From: Alphaproteobacteria bacterium
GTDB lineage: Bacteria; Pseudomonadota; Alphaproteobacteria; SP197
Assembly: GCA_965204785.1 (NCBI GenBank)
Contig: OZ242015.1
Span: forward strand, 899,241 to 963,240
Reading direction: 5' to 3'
DNA length: 64,000 bases
Shown here: positions 8,384 to 24,726 of the stretch, piece after piece
How positions within the stretch are numbered: the first letter of the stretch is position 1
Layout: the number at the start of each line of letters is the position of its first letter
Made by a program: the position numbers and the translations under genes
Notes under the pieces: generated by a model
The model's input: only the letters and a program-made list of their open reading frames with translations
Told to the model about the DNA's origin: nothing
Databases searched by the model: none

Positions 8384-8524
8384 ATGCAAGTTCAGAAAGC
8401 ACCCGATGATGCGCCCGCCGGTAGCAAGCTCCCGGAATGGTTCGTATTCCCGTTTCTAACGGTTTTCATCTAGCCCTTCGTCGCGGTCGGCGTGGTGGGG
8501 GTACTGGCGTGGTGGGGGTACTGA
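8384..8524 (+). pseudogene. napE: napE (small membrane subunit of periplasmic nitrate reductase) remnant
   Basis: MQVQKAPDDAPAGSKLPEWFVFPFLTVFI-TAG(8471)-PFVAVGVVGVLAWWGY; in-frame stop plus a 17-bp tandem duplication in the GGYGF-like region. Confidence 0.5.
8489..8522 (+). repeat. 17-bp perfect tandem duplication (ggcgtggtgggggtact x2) inside the napE remnant
   Basis: Direct reading of the sequence. Confidence 0.85.
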
Positions 8525-8877: not shown

Positions 8878-10238
8878 TCTGATCAGGGCCCAGGCCGTGG
8901 CTGGCTTGCAACTCCCGTGCTCAGCCAGCCCCTCGAGCAGGGAATCGGCGACGTGGAACTCACTTGGCCGAAGGCGCCGTGCCGGTTCTGCGGTACCGGT
9001 TGTGGTGTGATGGTCGGTGTCAAGAAGGGGCGTGTAGTTGCCACCCATGGTGAGGTCAACCGTGGCCTCAACTGCGCGAAGGACGAGTTTCTATCGAAGA
9101 TCATGTACGGCGAGGATCGACTGATGCAGCCTCTATTGCGCATGGCCAATGGTGCCTACGACAAGGATAAGGTGAATTCACACCGGTCACATGGGCCGGG
9201 CTTTCGATGAGATGGCGCGCCAGCGGAAGCGGGTGCTGGCGAAAAAAGGGTCCACCGCGATCGGAATGTTCGGCTCCGGGCAGTGGAGCATCTGGGAAGG
9301 GCATGCCGCCAGCAAGTTGATGCGCGCTGGGTTTGGATCAAACAACCTCAATCCCAATGCCCGGCATTGCATGGCCTCGGCCGCTACGGCGTTCATTCGT
9401 ACGTTCCGCATGGACGAGCCCACGGGCTGCTATGACGATTTTGAGCATGCGGACGACTTCGTGCTCTGGGGCTCAAACATGGCCAAAATGCATCCGGTTC
9501 TTTGGACGCGCCTGACCGACCGCCGCCTAGGGCGTCCCGATGTGCGCGTCAGCGTGCTGTCGACCTAGTACGCACCGCAGTTCCGACTTGGCAGACCTGC
9601 CGATCATTTTCCGTCCTGGCACCGATCTCGTGATCGCCATCCACATCATTGCATCGGGCGCGGTGAACGAGTCATTCGTTTCTCAGAATGCCGGCTTCTG
9701 GCTTGGTAACACCGATGTCGGTTATGGCCTTCGCGACGAGCATCCTTTGCAACAAGCCGGCCAATGCGGGCGACGCGGGAGACATGTCGACGATCGACCT
9801 TCAGACCTATGCTGACTTCGTAGCGGATTACACGCTTGACCGGATCGCCGACCTCACCGGCGTGGAAGCAGACAAGCTGGAGCGTCTGGCCGCCGTCCAC
9901 GCGCATTCGGACCGCAAGGTGATGAGCCTGCGGACCATGGGTTTCAACCAGATGGAAGAAGGATACGCCAATCACGAGGTCGAGGCATTCGGGTTCTACA
10001 TTCAAAAGGGGCTGTTCGAGGAATACGCCAGTTTTGGTCACGGCCACGATCTCGACGATTTCGACACCTACTCACACCAACCGGGGAAACGCTGGTTGGT
10101 CGTCGACGGCCATGAGACACGCTGGTGCTATCGTGCCTGGGAGGACCCCTATGCCACGGTTGACGACGGTGTGCAGTTCTATGGCATGCCCGACGACCGC
10201 GCAAAAATCCCGGCGACGCCCCATGAACCGCCCGCCGC
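8858..10238 (+). pseudogene. napA: napA (catalytic subunit of periplasmic nitrate reductase), heavily degraded
   Basis: Tat signal [17 protein letters not shown] at 8858 overlapping the napD stop. NapA-like pieces sit in at least four frames (…[18 protein letters not shown]… / …[20 protein letters not shown]…[25 protein letters not shown]… / …TMGFNQ|[34 protein letters not shown]…). The junction TMGFNQ|MEEGY implies an internal deletion of roughly 300 aa, and the C-terminal ~150 aa are missing. Confidence 0.75.
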
Positions 10239-10425
10239 TTGCCCGCCAGGGCACCGATGCCGGACGTCAGATTCGGAACTATCCCGAACGATATCGGGGG
10301 CTATCAACTCACGTTGAACGCCAATACCTGTCTCACCTGCCATCGACGTCAGTATATCGAAGCCTTGAGCGCACCCATGATCTCCATCACTCATTTCAGG
10401 ACCGTGACGGCCGGATTGTTGAGAA
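10239..10425 (+). pseudogene. napB: napB (dihaem cytochrome c subunit) fragment: first haem site only
   Basis: …[46 protein letters not shown]… matches the NapB region PPMIPH..GYQ.T.N.N.CLQCH…AP.ISPTHF; signal peptide and second CxxCH lost. Confidence 0.55.
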
Positions 10426-10446
10426 ATGCGAAAGATGGGTGGGTTA

Positions 10447-10476
10447 TTGATGCGAAAGATGTTGTGACGGCGATGT
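10447..10476. repeat. left 30-bp terminal inverted repeat (ttgatgcgaaagatgttgtgacggcgatgt)
   Basis: Perfect reverse complement of 10833-10862. Confidence 0.85.
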
Positions 10477-10832
10477 GGGATTACGTGACCGGATGCGGGA
10501 TTCAACGGGATGTTGAGACAATCAATGCGCCCCCATCGCCTTCGGGGTCAGGGTCCGCGTCGTCGTCGAGGGCGTCGATGACGATGCGGGAGATCGCCTC
10601 GTTGTCCTCGGTCGAGAGGCCGAGGAGGAGCGCCCGCGACGCAGGCTGCGTCCTGAATAAACGCCTTGCGTTTAGTCGTTCAGTCGCCATGTGACCGCGC
10701 GCCCGCGCCCCCGATGCAAGGCCGCTTGCATGACTCCTGCAACGGCCCTGAAGCGCCCGTGAACGGCCCTCCCGGGAGGCTCGGTCCCCGGCCCGAATCG
10801 AACCCGAAATCAACAATGTGTTGAAATAATCA

Positions 10833-16692: not shown

Positions 16693-17589
16693 ATGTCACC
16701 GACAGGATTTTCCCTCTCGGTTGCAATGCATGTGGCGCTGGTGGCGTTCGTCATCATCGGTCTGCCGCAGTTGTGGAAGGATGTGCCCGAGCCTGTCGAC
16801 TCCGTGACGGTCGATCTTCTGGTCCTGACCGAGGAGGCGGGAGCACCCGCGCCCGCGCCCGAACCGGTCGAGGAGGCCGAGGAGGCCGAGGAGATTGCCC
16901 AGTCCGAGCCGGAGCCCAAAGTCGTGAGCCTCGACATGCCCGAGCCGCTGCCCGAACTCGAAGACCTGCCGGAACTCGAGCTTCCCGACCCCGTCGCTCT
17001 GCCCGACCCCGTCGCTCTGCCCGAGCCTGAGCCGTTGCCCGAACCCGAACCGACCCCGGAGCCGGTGGTCGCCGCCGCACCCGTGCCGGTCGAGAAACCC
17101 GACACGCCGCCCAAGCCCGAGGAGCCTCAGTTCACCGACATGATGGCAAGCCTTCTCATCGATCAGGCCGCCGATGAACCGCCGCCGCCGGCCGAGCCGG
17201 AATCAACGTCGAACTTCGAAGAGATGCTTGCCTCTCTGGATTCCTCGGTCAATGCGCCGCCCGCCGATGAAGAGACCGCCACCATTAGCTCCCTGATCTC
17301 CCAGCAGATCGCCAAGCGATGGAACATCCTGGGCGGCGCCGCCGATGCCGAGGGCCTAGTTGTCACCATCCAAATCGCCCTTGCCCCCGACGGCAGGGTG
17401 CTGATCGCCAAGGTTACGGGCGTCACAGGGGGCACGACCCAGGAATTTCGTAACGCCGCGCGCGCTTCCGCGCTGCGTGCCGTACTCTACTTTGAGGATC
17501 ACCCGTTCCTGAATCTGCCGCTGGACCGTTACGATGTCTGGCGCAACATCATTATCAAATTCGACCCGCGTCAGATGTTGAGGACTTGA
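16693..17589 (+). CDS. tolA: cell-envelope integrity protein TolA
   Basis: N-terminal TM helix, Pro/Glu/Ala-rich linker, C-terminal TolA domain. Confidence 0.85.
16986..17021 (+). repeat. 18-bp tandem repeat cccgaccccgtcgctctg x2 in the tolA linker ([12 protein letters not shown])
   Basis: Direct reading; further EEAEEAEE repeat at 16860-16890. Confidence 0.8.
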
Positions 17590-18923
17590 GAGCCATGAAA
17601 CCAATTCGCATGCGGCCCCGCCTTGCCGCCGTCATCGTCCTTCTTGTTGGGCTGGGGCTGGTCCAGTCGGCCAGAGCACAACTCGTGGTCGATGTCACCT
17701 CCGGTCATAACGACCCGCTGCCCATCGCCGTCACGGAATTCATCGGCTTGGCCGCCGATGCGACAATCGGTGCGAACATCGCCGAGGTCGTGGCCGCCGA
17801 CCTCGAACGCTCCGGCCTCTTCGATCCCATCGACCGCGCCGCCTTTATCCAGTCGGCGGCCGATATCGGGCTTTTCCCCCGCTTCGGCGACTGGCGCACG
17901 ATCAGGGTCGAGGCGCTGGTCACCGGCATGGTCGAACGCAAGACCGACGGCAGGCTCAAGGTCAGCTTCCGGCTCTGGGATACCTTCACCGAAGAACAGA
18001 TCGTCGGCTATGTCTATAGCGGCCGCGAGGATATCTGGCGGCGCATCGCCCACAAGATCGCCGATGCCGTCTACGAGTTGCTGACCGGGGAAAGCGGCTA
18101 TTTCGACAGCCGCATCGTCTATATCTCCGAAAGTGGCACGGCCAGCGCGCGCGTCAAGCGGCTGGCGATCATGGATCAGGACGGCGCGAACCATCAGTAC
18201 CTGACCGACGGGGCCAACCTGGTGCTCACACCGCGCTTTTCGCCGACCCGCCAGGAAATCACCTTCATGGCGTATTTCAACCAGACACCGCGCGTCTATC
18301 TGCTTGATATCGAGACGGGGCGGCGCGAGGTGCTGGGCGATTTCCCCGGCATGTCCTTCGCCCCGCGCTTCTCGCCCGACGGGCGCAAGGTCATCATGTC
18401 GCTGGCGGTGGACGGCAATTCCGACATCTATGTCATGGATCTGCCGACCCGCAGCATCACGCGCCTGACCGCCGATCCCGCGATAGATACCTCGCCGTCG
18501 TTCTCGCCGGACGGGGACTTCATCACCTTCAACTCCAACCGGGACGGCAAGCCGCAGATTTACGTCATGAGTCCGGACGGCAGCAATGTCCAGCGCATCA
18601 CGTTCAACGAGGGCGTCTACTCCACGCCGGTGTGGTCGCCGCGCGGCGACCACATCGCCTTCACCAGGGAGCACCAAGGCACGTTCTATATCGGCGTCAT
18701 GAAAACCGACGGAACCGGTGAACGGCTGATTGCCCAAGGATATCAAGTGGAAGGGCCCACTTGGTCGTCGAACGGGCGCGTCATTATGTTTTTCCGGCAG
18801 GTGCCGGTGGGAACTCAAAGCGTCGTGCAACTGGTTACAATTGACCTGACGGGGTTCAACGAAAGGATTGTCCCGACCCCTCAGGATGGCTCCGATCCTG
18901 CGTGGTCTCCCTTGATTCCGTAA
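17586..18923 (+). CDS. tolB: Tol-Pal system beta-propeller protein TolB
   Basis: 445 aa, signal peptide, WD40-like PD40 repeats. Confidence 0.95.
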
Positions 18924-19069
18924 GTTTGCAACACTATAGTTCAGTCGAGTTTTCATACGGCCGATGCGGTTTGCTGCCGGCTAAGGTCGCCCCAAGAGAG
19001 ACTTGGCCTCTCTCATGGCTGAAATCTCGAATTTCTGGCCGTTCTCACACTAGAGGGGAAATTTTTCTC

Positions 19070-19603
19070 ATGCGCTTCAAACTGTTTAGCATCTTCGCAG
19101 CCGCCGTGCTTGTCGCCGCGTGCGAATCGACGCCGGAGACAACTGATACCGACGATGGCGCAGGCGACGTTGTCATCGAAGACGTTGTCATTGTAGTAGA
19201 AGACGTTGTCATTGTAGAAGACGTTGTCATCGTCGATGAGATCGATCCGCGCAGCAGCCAATACGTCACGGAGGTTCTGGGCGACCGCGTCTTTTTCGAT
19301 TTCGACAGCTCGGTCATTAATGCCCAGGCCCAGAACACGATCAAACGTTGGGTCGAATGGATGGGCGTCTTCGGTGACATCGTGGTGATTGTCGAAGGTC
19401 ACGCCGACGAGCGTGGCACCCGTGACTATAACCTGGCGCTGGGCGAGCGTCGTGCCCATGCGGTCAAGAACTTCATAGTCGCCATGGGCATCGATTCCAG
19501 CCGTATCGCGACGATCAGCTTCGGCAAGGAACGTCCTGCCGTCGAAGGTCATACCGAAGCGGCTTGGGCGCAGAACCGCCGCGCCGTACTGGTGTTGGGT
19601 TGA
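19070..19603 (+). CDS. pal: peptidoglycan-associated lipoprotein Pal
   Basis: Lipobox LVAAC; acidic repetitive linker; OmpA-like C-terminal domain (…GHADERGTRDYNLALGERRA…). Confidence 0.9.
   Translation: MRFKLFSIFAAAVLVAACESTPETTDTDDGAGDVVIEDVVIVVEDVVIVEDVVIVDEIDPRSSQYVTEVLGDRVFFDFDSSVINAQAQNTIKRWVEWMGVFGDIVVIVEGHADERGTRDYNLALGERRAHAVKNFIVAMGIDSSRIATISFGKERPAVEGHTEAAWAQNRRAVLVLG
19166..19240 (+). repeat. imperfect ~18-21-bp tandem repeats (gaagacgttgtcat[c/t]gt…) encoding (E)DVVIV x4 in the Pal linker
   Basis: DVVIEDVVIVVEDVVIVEDVVIVDE at protein level. Confidence 0.8.
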
Positions 19604-19772
19604 TCTGACACCGCGTGGCTGGCTTTAATGTGGAGCGGCCCGTTGCGTTTGCCGTGTTGGGTTGCCTGAATTTCGTCGTGGTTTGGCTTCAGCGTATGGA
19701 ATCTGCCGTTGGACGCGTGCCACGGACGGGTTGCCCGATACGCTGAAGCTGCCGCACAAGGACGAAATCGTC

Positions 19773-20633
19773 ATGAAGAAGCTGTTGGTTGGATTGTCGT
19801 TTCTGGCCGTGTTGGCATCGGCCACGCCGTTGTTCGCGCAAACCGCCGATGTTCAGACCCTGTCGAGCAAACTGGACCGGTTGCACAACGATCTCATCGA
19901 CCTTCAGCGGTTCGTCTATAAAGGCGAGGGCGAGGTTCTTACCGTCACGCCCTCCATCGCGTCCAGCGCCAACTCCGCGACCATCCAGCTTGGTATCCAA
20001 CAGTTCGAGGAAAAGCTGCGCCTGCTGACCGGCCGGCTCGAGGATCTGGAATACCAGCAGCGCCAGTTGAACGAGCGCATGGACAAACTGGTCGCTGACG
20101 TCGATGCGCGCCTGGCTTCGGGCGCGCCCATGGCCGGTGACGCCAATGACCTCACCATGCCCGGCGACGGCGGTCTCACCAACGATGACCTTGTCGCCGG
20201 CTCGGACGTTGAGGCCGGGGATGTCACCGGCGCCCTGCTGCCGCCTGATTCCGAGATGGACCAGTACAACTTTGCCTTCTCGCTGCTGCGCAAGGCCGAC
20301 TACGAGGGCGCCGAAATCGCCTTCAACGAGTTCATTTCCGTCTTTCCCAACAGCGAACTCAATGGAAACGCTTACTATTGGTTGGGTTCTACCTATTTCG
20401 TTCGTGAAAATTACCAGAACGCAGCGATTGCCTTCCTGAAAGGCTACCAGTTCGACGCCACCGGGCCCAAGGCGGCAGACATCCTGCTGAAGCTGGGCGT
20501 CACGCTCTCGCGCCTGGGCAAGAATGCCGAAGCCTGCGCAACCTTTGTCGAACTCAACAACAAATTCCCCGAAGCCGCGCAGACCCTTCTGGACGAAGCG
20601 TCCGACGAAGCGGCCGCGGCCGGCTGCGGCTAA
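19773..20633 (+). CDS. cpoB: Tol-Pal system protein CpoB/YbgF
   Basis: Signal peptide MKKLLVGLSFLAVLASATPLFA, coiled coil, C-terminal TPR. Confidence 0.85.
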   Translation: MKKLLVGLSFLAVLASATPLFAQTADVQTLSSKLDRLHNDLIDLQRFVYKGEGEVLTVTPSIASSANSATIQLGIQQFEEKLRLLTGRLEDLEYQQRQLNERMDKLVADVDARLASGAPMAGDANDLTMPGDGGLTNDDLVAGSDVEAGDVTGALLPPDSEMDQYNFAFSLLRKADYEGAEIAFNEFISVFPNSELNGNAYYWLGSTYFVRENYQNAAIAFLKGYQFDATGPKAADILLKLGVTLSRLGKNAEACATFVELNNKFPEAAQTLLDEASDEAAAAGCG

Positions 20634-20755
20634 GGCCCGACTGCGATCTTCTGGCCGTTTGCGGTTCAAATCTCCGGCGTTTGGTCTTGTCCTCGCACCT
20701 CTTGATCTCCGGACCTGCATGTATGGAAGCCGAAGCCAGTCAGAGGGTTCTCGGC

Positions 20756-20799
20756 CATGCACGGTATTGCCGTTTCCCATGCACGGTATTGCCGTTTCG
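20756..20799 (+). repeat. 22-bp tandem duplication (catgcacggtattgccgtttc[c/g] x2) spanning the start codon of the pal paralog
   Basis: Direct reading; the first copy's ATG is out of frame. Confidence 0.85.
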
Positions 20800-21286
20800 T
20801 TTTCAGCGCTGCTTTTGCCCGCCGCCTGCAGCAATCCTTCGGTCCAGGAAGATGAACGCGTGGTCTACAGCGTCGATGCCGACGATGGCGACGCACTTAT
20901 GGTCGACGACACGTGCTTGGCGGCTTTGAAGTGCTCACCGATCTGGATCGGAGGCGCCGGGTCACTGGCCAACCGGGAGAACGCATGACAGCATCACCCT
21001 GACACCGCAGGGCCAGCAAATCGTGAAGGGCTGGAGCGAATGGATGCGCCAGTTTCCCGAGGTTGCCGTGCGCATCGAGGGGCACGGCGACGAGCGCGGG
21101 ACGCGCGAATACAATCTTGCGCTCGGCGACAAGCGCGCCAATGCGGTACGTAATCTTATCATCGCCTACGGCATCGACCCCTCGCGGATCGGTGTCGTCA
21201 GCTTCGGCAAGGAGCGTCCGGTGGTTGCCGGCCATACCCAGAAGTCCTGGGCGCAAAACCGTCGCGGTGTTCTGACGATCATTTAG
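20779..21286 (+). pseudogene. second, disrupted pal copy (pal') downstream of cpoB
   Basis: Frame 1: MHGIAVSFSALLLPAACSNPSVQEDERVVYSVDADDGD… (signal+lipobox+acidic start, parallel to Pal) ending TGA 20988. Frame 2 (20990-21286): …ITLTPQGQQIVKGWSEWMRQFPEVAVRIEGHGDERGTREYNLALGDKRANAVRNLIIAYGIDPSRIGVVSFGKERPVVAGHTQKSWAQNRRGVLTII, an intact OmpA-like domain ~75% identical to Pal. Shared upstream motif ttctggccgtt. Confidence 0.6.
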
Positions 21287-21340
21287 AGCAAGAGCATGTC
21301 AGGTCGCCCCGACCTGAACTGATCGGGTCTAGATACAGGA

Positions 21341-22768
21341 TTGGGCTTCCCCATGGGCGATTGCCCATTCTCCGTGAACAGCACTCCTGCTACCCTTTGC
21401 GAGACGACCATGCAACAAGCGACCTCCCCGCCGGCGAACGAAGAACTCCGAACGGATGTGGCAATCAACCTGCCCGGCCCGAGCGCCGTTCTCCCGATTG
21501 AGGCGGGCGAGTTCGCGCGGCTGATGGAGCGCTGGGCCCCGTTCGAGGCCCCGCCGCGGCTTGCGGTCGGCCTGTCGGGCGGTGCCGACAGCATGGCGTT
21601 GACGCTGCTCGTTCGGGACTGGGTACGCCGCCTTGGCGGATCGGTGTCAGCATGGGTCGTCGATCATGGTCTGCGCGCGGAGTCTGCTGCGGAAGCCGCC
21701 GACGTCGTCGCGTTCTGCGCAAGTGCGGGAATCGAAGCGGAGGTGTTGCCCTGGAGGGGTCCCAAACCCTCGAGCGGCGTGGAGCAGGCCGCTCGCTGTG
21801 CCCGCCATAATCTTCTTGCCCGCGCATGCCTGGATAAAGGCCTGCTCCACCTGTTGCTCGCCCATCACGCTGACGACCAGGCCGAAACCGTCGCCATGCG
21901 CGGTGCCATGCGCAGTGGCAGCCTGGGTCTTTCCGGCATGTCCGCGTGCATCGAACAGGTCGGATTTCGCGTTCTGCGCCCGCTTCTGGCCGTCCGTAAG
22001 GCCCGGCTGGTGGCTACCTTGCGGACCCGGCGGGTCGCATGGTTCGACGATCCCATGAACCATGATCTTTCGTTTACGCGCGTCATACTGCGCCGCGAAG
22101 GCACGCCTGCGCCCGATCCAGGCTTCGGCAACGACCGGCAGCGCATGGAGCGGCGCCTTGCCGCCTGCCTGCCGTCTCTGGTGGAGATCGATAGCGCGGG
22201 CCGGGCGCGTTTAGACCGTGCGGCCTTGGTCGAGCAGGATCCGGCCATGATCAGGCTGACCGTTGCGCGGGTTGCCCAGACCGTCGGCGGTCTCGATTAC
22301 CCCCCGCGCGGTAGACGCCTCGATGCGTTGGTCGCCAGCCTCGCCCAACCCGGTCCCGTCAGGAGAACCCTGGGGCGTTGCACCTGGTGCGGCGGGGATA
22401 CGGTCCAGGTCCGGCGCGAGCGGCGCAATCTGCCCCGCATCGACGTCCTTGGCGGGCGCGAGACACTTTGGGACGGCAGGTTCCGGCTCACGCTGCCCGT
22501 GGGAAACTGGTCCATCGGGACTCTGTCCGCGACACAATGGCGTGACCTTGCATCCCGATCGGACGATTTGGGTCTCAAAGGATCGAAAATCGAGGAATTT
22601 GGCGGAATTCCCGCTGTCTCTGACCTTGAAGGCTTGGCCGCGATACCCCACCTTGGATATGCACGCGAAAGCGGTCTCGGGACGTTCCGGGTGCGGTTCG
22701 CGCCGAAACAGCCGTTGGTGCCGGCCCTTTATGCCGGGGCTGGCATGATGGACGCTGAAAGGCGATAA
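21341..22768 (+). CDS. tilS: tRNA(Ile)-lysidine synthetase TilS
   Basis: PP-loop [14 protein letters not shown]; start may be the Met at 21410. Confidence 0.85.
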
Positions 22769-22800: not shown

Positions 22801-24726
22801 TTGAACAACTTTGGACGCAATCTTGCGCTATGGGTCGTCATTGCAATCCTGCTGATCGCGCTGTTCCAGCTGTTCCAGCCGAACGATCCCAACCAGCATT
22901 CCGAACTGGCGTTTTCCAGCTTCCTGGAGGAAGTGGAAGCCGGTCAGGTACGCAAGGTCACGATCCAGGGCAACCGGATCAACGGACAGTTCACCGGCGG
23001 ACAGGAATTCACCACCTATGCGCCCAACGATGCCGATCTCGTTCCCGTCCTGACCGAAAACAATGTCGAGATCTCGGCCGCGCCCAGCGAAGAGGGCATG
23101 CCGTCATTCTTCGGCATCCTGCTTTCCTGGTTCCCGATGCTGCTTCTCATTGGCGTGTGGATTTTCTTCATGCGTCAGATGCAGTCGGGCGGCGGCAAGG
23201 CCATGGGCTTTGGCCGGTCCAAGGCGCGTCTGCTGACCGAAAAGCAGGGCCGCGTGACCTTCGAGGACGTCGCGGGTATCGACGAGGCCAAGGACGAACT
23301 CGAGGAGATCGTCGAGTACCTGAAGAATCCGCAGAAATTCCAGCGCCTGGGTGGCCGTATCCCCAAGGGCGTGCTGCTGGTTGGTCCTCCGGGCACGGGT
23401 AAGACGCTTCTGGCGCGCGCCATTGCGGGCGAAGCGAATGCGCCGTTCTACACCATCTCGGGCTCGGACTTCGTCGAGATGTTCGTCGGCGTGGGCGCCA
23501 GCCGCGTGCGCGACATGTTCGAGCAGGCCAAGAAGAACGCGCCCTGCATCATCTTTATCGACGAAATTGACGCCGTGGGCCGCCATCGCGGCGCAGGTCT
23601 CGGTGGTGGCAACGACGAGCGCGAGCAGACCCTCAACCAGTTGCTTGTCGAAATGGACGGTTTCGAGGCCAACGAAGGTATCATCCTGATCGCTGCGACC
23701 AACCGTCCCGACGTGCTCGACCCCGCGCTCCTGCGTCCGGGCCGTTTCGACCGCCAGGTCGTGGTGCTCAACCCTGACATTCTGGGCCGCGAGAAGATCC
23801 TGAAGGTCCACACTCGCAAGGTGCCGATCGGTGCGGATGTCGTGTTGAAGACCATTGCCCGCGGCACGCCCGGATTCTCCGGCGCCGACCTCGCCAACCT
23901 TGTGAACGAGGCCGCCCTGCTTGCGGCCCGGCGCGGCAAGCGCGTCGTCACCATGAAGGAACTCGAGGACGCAAAGGATAAGGTCATGATGGGCGCAGAA
24001 CGCCGCTCCATGGTCATGACCGAGGACGAAAAGAAGCTCACCGCCTATCACGAAGGCGGCCATGCCCTGGTCATGCTTTATGCGCCCGGCCACGAGCCCC
24101 TGCACAAGGTCACGATCATTCCGCGCGGGCGTGCCCTGGGTCTCACGATGTACCTCCCTGAACGGGACCGCCTGAGCATTTCGGAGAGGGAGCTCAAGGC
24201 CAAGATCGCCAGCCTGTTCGGCGGGCGCGTGGCCGAGGAAATGGTCTTCGGCAAGGAAAACATCACCACCGGTGCCAGCAACGACATCAAGGTCGCGACC
24301 GATCTTGCTCGCCGCATGGTCACGCAGTTCGGTTTCTCCGACAAACTGGGGCCGCTGCTTTACGGAGAGAACGACGAGGAAGTGTTCCTCGGCCACTCGG
24401 TGACCCAGCGCAAGAACGTCTCCGATTCCACCGCCGCGGTGATCGATGAGGAAATCCGACGCCTGATCGATGAGGGCGAGGCGACCGCGCGCCGCATCCT
24501 TGAGGAACACAGGGACGAGTTGGAATTGCTGGGAGAGGCGCTTCTGGAGCACGAGACGCTCTCGGCCGACGAAGTGCGGCGCGTCATCAAGGGAGAGTCG
24601 ATCAACCGTGACGAAGGCAACGAGCCCGAGCAGCCGGCGCCTCCGCGTCAGGGTGCGTCTGTGCCCACGACCGAAGGCGACGGCGCACCCGGTGGCGCAA
24701 CGCCCGAGCCCCAGCCCGGCGGTTGA
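22801..24726 (+). CDS. ftsH: ATP-dependent zinc metalloprotease FtsH
   Basis: TTG start (M)[17 protein letters not shown]…; Walker A GPPGTGKT; HEGGH zinc site. Confidence 0.95.

Follow-up and report, generated by a model that had tools for sequence, protein, structure and literature searches.

Between cpoB and tilS, a 64,000-nucleotide (nt) stretch of an alphaproteobacterial genome (contig OZ242015.1 of assembly GCA_965204785.1; hereafter, the window) carries the broken parts of a second lipoprotein gene of the Pal type, which raises the question of where this remnant came from and whether it still works. In the list of open reading frames (ORFs) of the window, the gene order is ruvAB-ybgC-tolQ-tolR-tolA-tolB (17586–18923), pal, cpoB, the remnant (~20755–21286), tilS, ftsH and folP, and all gene features described below lie on the forward (+) strand. 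The original prediction, made from the DNA letters alone, took the remnant for a recent segmental duplication of pal that is now decaying. Our analysis points with high confidence to another origin, namely a recently inactivated, non-functional deletion hybrid, in which the 5' part comes from one accessory pal paralogue (pal2) and the 3' part from the next (pal3), that is, to ordinary gene decay and not to a fresh copy of pal.

The two halves of the remnant occupy different reading frames. A lipoprotein-type N-terminus is encoded in one frame (20779–20988) and an OmpA/Pal-type domain in another (20985–21286), and the two open frames overlap over 20930–20985. From the ATG at 20779 the first frame reads MHGIAVSFSALLLPAACSNPSVQEDE... 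and MHGIAVSFSALLLPAACSNPSVQEDERVVYSVDADDGDALMVDD..., and ends at a TGA stop codon (20986–20988); the stretch 20779–20955 encodes a signal peptide, a damaged lipobox (LLPAAC) and the motif SNPSVQEDxxVVYS. The second frame runs from 20985 to the stop codon ending at 21286, comprises 100 codons without a stop or frameshift, and has no in-frame signal peptide. Its product matches PF00691 with 67.2 bits (cutoff 27.2) over positions 5–98 of 98, whereas its best family, TIGR02802 (Pal_lipo), is reached with 120.0 bits, just below the cutoff of 125.35, since it lacks the first five positions of the profile. The Asp and Arg residues of the DERG...(K/R)RA peptidoglycan-binding motif, as read from the sequence, are kept (GDERGTREYNLALGDKRA). 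The observation that the domain lies in another frame than the lipoprotein start and has lost its beginning (FDFD) is therefore confirmed, since the beta-1 motif GD.V.F.FDS is scrambled and HDS alone is left. Judged as a candidate Pal, the remnant is not an in-frame lipoprotein, having its signal peptide in frame 1 and its domain in frame 2, and it is located after cpoB and not after tolB, where the slot is held by the intact pal. The sole gene called at the remnant in the source genome is an 80-amino-acid (aa) fragment, P0006.

The same interval is occupied by complete genes in related genomes. Four relatives (L001–L004), metagenome-assembled genomes of uncultured Alphaproteobacteria or Rhodospirillaceae, were fetched with the CpoB protein of the window (60–78% identity), with one genome per species being scanned, and three further contigs (L005, L087 and L088) were found via protein search. 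In L002, L003 and L004, two complete Pal-like lipoprotein genes are located between cpoB and tilS. L001 has the same order up to the end of its contig, which falls inside the second Pal-like gene, ahead of tilS. The gene order is also the same in L005, L087 and L088, the last two of which extend into tilS, and L088 also into ftsH and folP. We termed the two genes pal2 (163–166 aa in the relatives) and pal3 (174–177 aa). Each of the seven relatives encodes pal2 in one ORF, and pal3 is likewise a single ORF in L002–L004, in L088, and in L001 up to the contig end. Their intact products possess lipoprotein signals and score close to the TIGR02802 cutoff (126.7 and 127.8 bits for Pal3, 126.1 and 121.4 bits for Pal2), and one source labels the Pal3 orthologue P0003 as 'peptidoglycan-associated lipoprotein'.

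A neighbor-joining tree of the OmpA domains resolves three clades that correspond to Pal, Pal2 and Pal3. Identity of the domains is 79–95% within Pal, 58–90% within Pal2 and 68–86% within Pal3, compared with 47–67% between the groups. The presence of three separate clades across the relatives indicates that the triplication is older than the divergence of these lineages, and ratios of nonsynonymous to synonymous substitution rates (dN/dS) of 0.05–0.25 for the accessory paralogues point to strong purifying selection. The paralogues are thus old and conserved, and the window records their loss, not their birth. The original prediction had accepted that a conserved second OmpA-family lipoprotein gene of the same two-frame structure in relatives would tell against it. 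Conserved extra genes of this family do exist at the locus and argue against a duplication, although each is encoded in a single frame and the two-frame structure is absent. No description of a pal-cpoB-pal2-pal3 array was found in full-text literature searches.

Each half of the remnant has its counterpart in a different member of this array. Its N-terminal 43 residues match the N-termini of Pal2 only (48–58% aa identity, E ~1e-12 by tblastn) and give no match to those of Pal3 or Pal, and at the DNA level the 5' part is 77% identical to pal2 of L087 over 107 nt (blastn). The remnant thus has a Pal2-type N-terminus (LLLAAC-xNPxVQxDxxVVYS in its intact form) directly 3' of cpoB. An OmpA domain of the Pal2 type does not follow, because the domain of the remnant is far closer to the Pal3 orthologues (82–84% aa identity, E 4e-65; tblastn and identity matrix) than to Pal2 (47–60%). 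In the neighbor-joining tree it falls inside the Pal3 clade, beside L002, L005 and L006, and in 418 of 500 column resamplings every Pal3 was nearer to it than any Pal or Pal2. The segment 20985–21288 is colinear with pal3 without gaps, with 79.6% DNA identity to L002 and 81.6% to L005 (blastn). Its position is also Pal3-like, since the remnant stops at 21286 directly 5' of the tilS start at 21341, similar to pal3 in L002–L004, L087 and L088. A scan of metagenomes with the pal3-derived domain returned only ordinary Pal proteins of at most 57% identity, the matches being saturated by the generic DERGTREY pattern, and thus yielded no nearer relatives.

The canonical pal of the window is a far more distant relative of the remnant. 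The two OmpA domains share 57–59% identity over 98 residues, less than the value of about 75% given at first, and in a pairwise DNA alignment only ~200 nt can be aligned, at ~72% identity, while the 5' halves and the upstream regions do not align save for one 11-mer. This motif, TTCTGGCCGTT, is located at 20649–20659 and again in the pal leader at 19033–19043. It occurs exactly twice in 64 kb against an expectation of 0.04, and two shuffled upstream regions would share an 11-mer with P ~0.001. The shared upstream motif of the original prediction is therefore real. However, its distance to the ATG is 37 nt in pal but 108 nt, counted to the first ATG, in the remnant, with nothing alignable around it, and in the absence of any longer shared block a duplication of promoter-proximal DNA is not supported. 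Likewise, a lipoprotein-type N-terminus is indeed present downstream of cpoB, but the parallel drawn with the N-terminus of Pal reduces to both being lipoprotein signal peptides. Hence, although pal and the remnant are both Pal-type lipoprotein genes and have the 11-mer in common, it is barely conceivable that a recent segmental duplication placed a copy of the resident pal, promoter-proximal DNA included, downstream of cpoB and that this copy is now in decay, given the Pal2-type N-terminus, the Pal3-clade domain and the presence of pal2 and pal3 at this very locus in seven relatives.

The DNA between the two matching segments has been lost. The DNA of 20779–20891, with the segment 20807–20891 inside it, aligns with the 5' end of pal2, and the points corresponding to its end and to the start of the pal3-like segment are 907 nt apart in L002 and 94 nt apart in the window; the missing ~0.8–0.9 kb comprises the 3' part of pal2, the spacer and the 5' part of pal3. 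A DNA profile of six pal3 genes (283 bits) aligns to the remnant only from 20985 onward, precisely where the x-Asp-Ser codons lie, and the Pal3-type N-terminus, with its signal peptide and P.PTL.Y..YGDRVLF linker, finds no match 5' of this position, whether Pal3 proteins or the DNA profile are compared. The pal2-specific DL.GG ends at ~20955, and we accordingly place the junction of pal2- and pal3-derived DNA at 20956–20984, just ahead of the TGA. Pairwise and profile DNA alignments do not place it more exactly, because both paralogues carry GD.V.F.(F/Y)DS there and no model joins cleanly. Three breakpoint models are all possible, specifically, an in-register join at GACAGC with a 14-nt insertion, an out-of-register join duplicating GD.V.F, and a diverged internal tandem duplication; none of them is clean.

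A profile of seven pal2 genes is colinear with the whole remnant from 20780, albeit with indels of +11, +1, -5, +14 and -2 between 20908 and 20985, the net +19 being equivalent to a +1 change of frame. Such colinearity with one pal-sized gene would be expected if the window had kept an ancestral single gene that the relatives later duplicated into pal2 and pal3. We give this scenario next to no credence. Judged by the identity of its CpoB and Pal proteins, the window is nearest to L001, L002 and L087, with L003, L004 and L088 outside, and all of these genomes have both genes. A single ancestral gene should moreover be roughly equidistant from Pal2 and Pal3, whereas the domain is 83% identical to the latter and 52–58% to the former, and a separate origin would be needed for the distinct N-terminus of Pal3.

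Besides the deletion, the remnant has at least three independent lesions. The first is the net +1 frame change within 20908–20984, which parts the signal peptide from the domain. The second is a perfect tandem duplication of 22 bp, CCATGCACGGTATTGCCGTTTC, with copies at 20755–20776 (containing the ATG at 20757) and 20777–20798 (containing the ATG at 20779), as found by exact string matching and by Tandem Repeats Finder (period 22, 2.0 copies, 100% matches, score 88). The unit occurs in the window in these two tandem copies only, the adjacent bases do not extend the repeat, and flanking microhomology is absent. The tandem 22-mer across the start codon was thus seen correctly in the original prediction, where the printed string had 21 nt. 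A Shine-Dalgarno-like AGAGGG (20742–20747), read from the sequence, precedes the first ATG by 9 nt, and in L002 a GAGGG is found at the equivalent place ahead of pal2. Because 22 is not a multiple of three, the ATG served by this element opens a dead-end ORF of 32 codons (20757–20855; MHGIAVSHARYCRF...GR*), and the second, in-frame ATG has no such element at a useful distance. The third lesion is in the lipobox, where Pro replaces at position -3 the Leu that is found in all relatives (LLPAAC versus LLLAAC). With frames broken in at least two places, a start region duplicated out of frame and a damaged lipobox, the remnant is indeed decaying, as first proposed, and probably gives rise to no product.

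The pal3-derived part itself has remained well preserved. Its dN/dS against the orthologues is 0.04–0.08, compared with 0.05–0.11 among the closest orthologues themselves, with dS above 1, and at four of the sites where the other Pal3 sequences do not vary it has a substitution, the corresponding number in those sequences ranging from 1 to 7. This low ratio, similar to that of intact orthologues, suggests that the domain was under purifying selection for nearly all of the time since divergence and that its inactivation is recent on that scale. The open 100 codons with their low dN/dS, the overlap of the two frames and the existence of metagenomic relatives with lesions confined to the pal3 N-terminus could also be taken to mean that the locus is a functional gene read by programmed +1 frameshifting, or a small lipoprotein followed by a free OmpA domain. 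We regard this as very improbable. The two-frame structure occurs in no relative and the frame overlap is not conserved; the stop context AAC GCA TGA CAG, as read from the sequence, offers no option for +1 re-pairing, and no Rfam element was found in 18800–21500. Without a signal peptide in its frame, the domain product could not reach the peptidoglycan, the ATG with the Shine-Dalgarno-like element leads into the dead-end frame, and at saturated dS a low dN/dS is equally expected from recent inactivation.

The following evolutionary scenario would account for the deletion hybrid of pal2 and pal3. The ancestor presumably had an extended cluster tolQRAB-pal-cpoB-pal2-pal3-tilS, in which pal2 and pal3 are old Pal paralogues encoding lipoproteins with a peptidoglycan-binding OmpA domain of the Pal type. 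A deletion of ~0.8–0.9 kb would then have removed the 3' two-thirds of pal2, the spacer with the upstream element of pal3, and the 5' third of pal3, leaving one pal-sized hybrid whose join coincides with, or directly adjoins, the conserved GD.V.F.(F/Y)DS motif with which the OmpA domain begins. Since pal2 and pal3 are only ~70–74% identical at the DNA level in the relatives, too low for ordinary homologous exchange, replication slippage or illegitimate (microhomology) recombination on short homology between the paralogues is the most likely route. The indels in 20908–20984 put the OmpA domain out of frame with the signal peptide, the 22-bp duplication, which appears to be of the replication-slippage type, shifts the ATG served by the Shine-Dalgarno-like element into its dead-end frame, and the Leu-to-Pro substitution in the lipobox is a third inactivating change. 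The 22-bp duplication and the hybrid-forming deletion belong to the same class of event, and further slippage products of this genome are a perfect 17-bp tandem duplication and an 18-nt repeat expansion in the linker of pal, both described below. The chimeric ancestry, the missing DNA, the broken frames, the duplication and the array of the relatives are thus directly observed, while the mechanism and the order of events are inferred. The lesions are found mostly in the pal2-derived part, which would fit a course in which pal2 decayed first and pal3 was lost later by the deletion.

Several points weigh against this explanation. The deletion and the duplication are both known from one assembly, the FtsH protein of the source genome is alone in its cluster at 90% identity, and the best pal3 relative is only 83% identical. 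The join is not clean, and under any model several indels are needed within the 76 nt that separate the end of clear similarity to pal2 from the beginning of that to pal3. An untidy join beside a pristine pal3 domain fits poorly with a single recent event, which suggests either earlier decay of pal2 or a complex repair. Finally, the spacer between cpoB and the remnant matched neither the cpoB-pal2 nor the pal2-pal3 spacer profile of the relatives (nhmmer), with only a short resemblance at TTCTG.CCG.TT.

The reliance on a single assembly also raises the question of an artefact, in which an assembler would have collapsed intact pal2 and pal3 genes, and the 22-bp repeat would be an untrimmed overlap or a consensus error. 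Untrimmed contig overlaps can give perfect repeats without flanking microhomology, as observed here, and the source is a single contig of 3,752,649 bp, possibly from a long-read assembly. We nevertheless consider an artefact improbable. The DNA sequences of pal2 and pal3 are much too different to be collapsed as repeats, the join is untidy and falls where the two are least alike, and a lipobox substitution together with multi-nucleotide indels is untypical of read errors. The flanking tolB, cpoB, tilS and ftsH ORFs are unbroken, the nap operon in the same window shows the same multi-lesion decay, and the presence of only one other perfect tandem duplication of at least 17 nt in 64 kb indicates that such repeats are not systematic. 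The lesions of the pal2-pal3 hybrid are thus most likely biological.

The second decayed locus is located at 8880–10700 (forward frames), where a napA-type periplasmic nitrate reductase is split among three frames and has internal deletions. NapB/C-like cytochrome fragments (CLTCH) come after it. The genome therefore carries real pseudogenes. The other perfect tandem duplication has a unit of 17 bp, GGCGTGGTGGGGGTACT (x2.1), and lies in non-coding DNA at 8489–8523, 5' of the nap remnants.

Lesions at the N-terminus of pal3 were also observed elsewhere. In L005, a TAG codon directly follows the lipobox Cys (1634–1636); in L006, a TAG is found in the linker (131–133); and in L087, an extra T in the T6 run of the signal peptide (~2870–2880) causes a +1 shift. 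Each of these was seen in a single assembly, and they may represent either recurrent knock-outs or metagenome consensus errors.

Upstream of pal3, all seven relatives possess a strongly conserved non-coding block of ~45 nt, TTCACAWTTCTGCCCGKTTTCCGCCGCGCTTTTGC, located ~120 nt from the gene (L002 5640–5690, L005 1440–1490, L087 2695–2745 and L088 2100–2150, with equivalents in L001, L003 and L004). Scans of the window region 18800–21500 and of four relatives' loci against Rfam yielded no match, and RNAalifold predicted no credible structure for the block (-2.7 kcal/mol); the block probably acts as promoter or operator. The TTCTGGCCGTT motif of the window is similar to its core, and a related TTCTGCCCGKTT is found 5' of pal3 in the relatives, which hints at a common control element for pal-family genes. 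A broader interpretation would be that a marine Rhodospirillaceae-like clade possesses an undescribed pal-cpoB-pal2-pal3 extension, in which pal3 is recurrently and always knocked out at the N-terminus (the hybrid of the window, L005, L006 and L087), possibly because selection favors losing or switching this envelope lipoprotein and not through random decay in a single lineage, with the shared TTCTG(G/C)CCG(T/G)TT as a possible common control site. We put it forward as a tentative and rather unlikely possibility.

The genes surrounding the remnant are intact. The canonical pal (19070–19603, 177 aa), directly 3' of tolB, scores 131.7 bits against the NCBIfam equivalog model TIGR02802, above its cutoff, and its OmpA domain is 79–87% identical to Pal of the relatives. 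The cpoB/ybgF gene (19773–20633, 286 aa) matches TIGR02795 (tol_pal_ybgF) with 107.5 bits against a cutoff of 90.1. On the other side lie tilS (21341–22768), the next gene after pal3 in L002–L004, L087 and L088, and ftsH (22801–24726). No further Pal-like sequence was detected in the window beyond pal and the remnant. As the canonical Tol-Pal genes are intact, the cell has lost accessory paralogues only.

The linker region of pal (19178–19230) contains an 18-nt tandem repeat, DVVIEDVVIVVEDVVIVEDVVIV (x2.7), of which only about one unit is found in the Pal of the relatives; here slippage has lengthened an intact gene without changing its frame. The tolB-pal leader (18912–19069) is kept in the relatives (nhmmer E 2e-22) and includes a sigma-70-like TTGATT-17-TATAGT at 18912–18940 and a GAGAGA...TCTCTC inverted repeat. 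The G+C content of the window is 62%. FtsH of the source genome shares its 90%-identity cluster with no other of ~15 billion proteins, and the collections searched contain no close sequenced relative of the organism.

These results correct both the annotation and the evolutionary interpretation of the locus, at which two accessory genes for envelope lipoproteins have been lost. They also reveal in the relatives a conserved cluster of three Pal genes, whose members are labelled simply 'Pal' by annotation pipelines. The dispensability of the extra paralogues here, and possibly elsewhere, offers a natural comparison for studying the role of additional Pal proteins in bacteria without Lpp-type tethers.

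Compared with Pal of the Tol-Pal system (TIGR02802/PF00691), the remnant has a domain of the same type, and Pal2 and Pal3 of the relatives score 121–128 bits, around the family cutoff. It differs in being located after cpoB, in the separation of signal peptide and domain into two frames, and in deriving from two paralogues that belong to clades other than Pal. The nearest functional analogy for Pal2 and Pal3 is PapS of Rhodospirillum rubrum. This lipoprotein of the outer membrane binds meso-diaminopimelate (mDAP) through an OmpA-like domain and occurs alongside Pal; it comprises 273 aa, has its own porin-binding N-terminal domain, and is present in more than one copy in many species (PMC11369160). 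Like PapS, Pal2 and Pal3 would be accessory OmpA-domain lipoproteins beside Pal, and the order, Rhodospirillales, is related. In contrast to it, they are 163–177 aa long, have only a short linker, and find their best family in Pal. Membership of PapS in the same family was considered, and it is set apart solely by its reported length and domain layout (273 aa, porin-binding domain).

As a kind of object, the remnant is a hybrid pseudogene between tandem paralogues, and such objects are already known. In common with other deletion hybrids of this kind, its 5' part comes from the upstream and its 3' part from the downstream paralogue, the DNA between them is gone, and the two parts meet within a motif common to both paralogues. 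It departs from them in its untidy join, with several indels in 76 nt, in that the hybrid is not in frame, and in that its parent genes, at ~70–74% DNA identity, are too diverged for RecA-dependent homologous exchange, so that a microhomology route appears likely. The short perfect tandem duplication within it resembles the frameshifting duplications that arise by slippage, and the locus thus clearly illustrates a pseudogene fused from two tandem paralogues to which a slippage-type duplication has been added.

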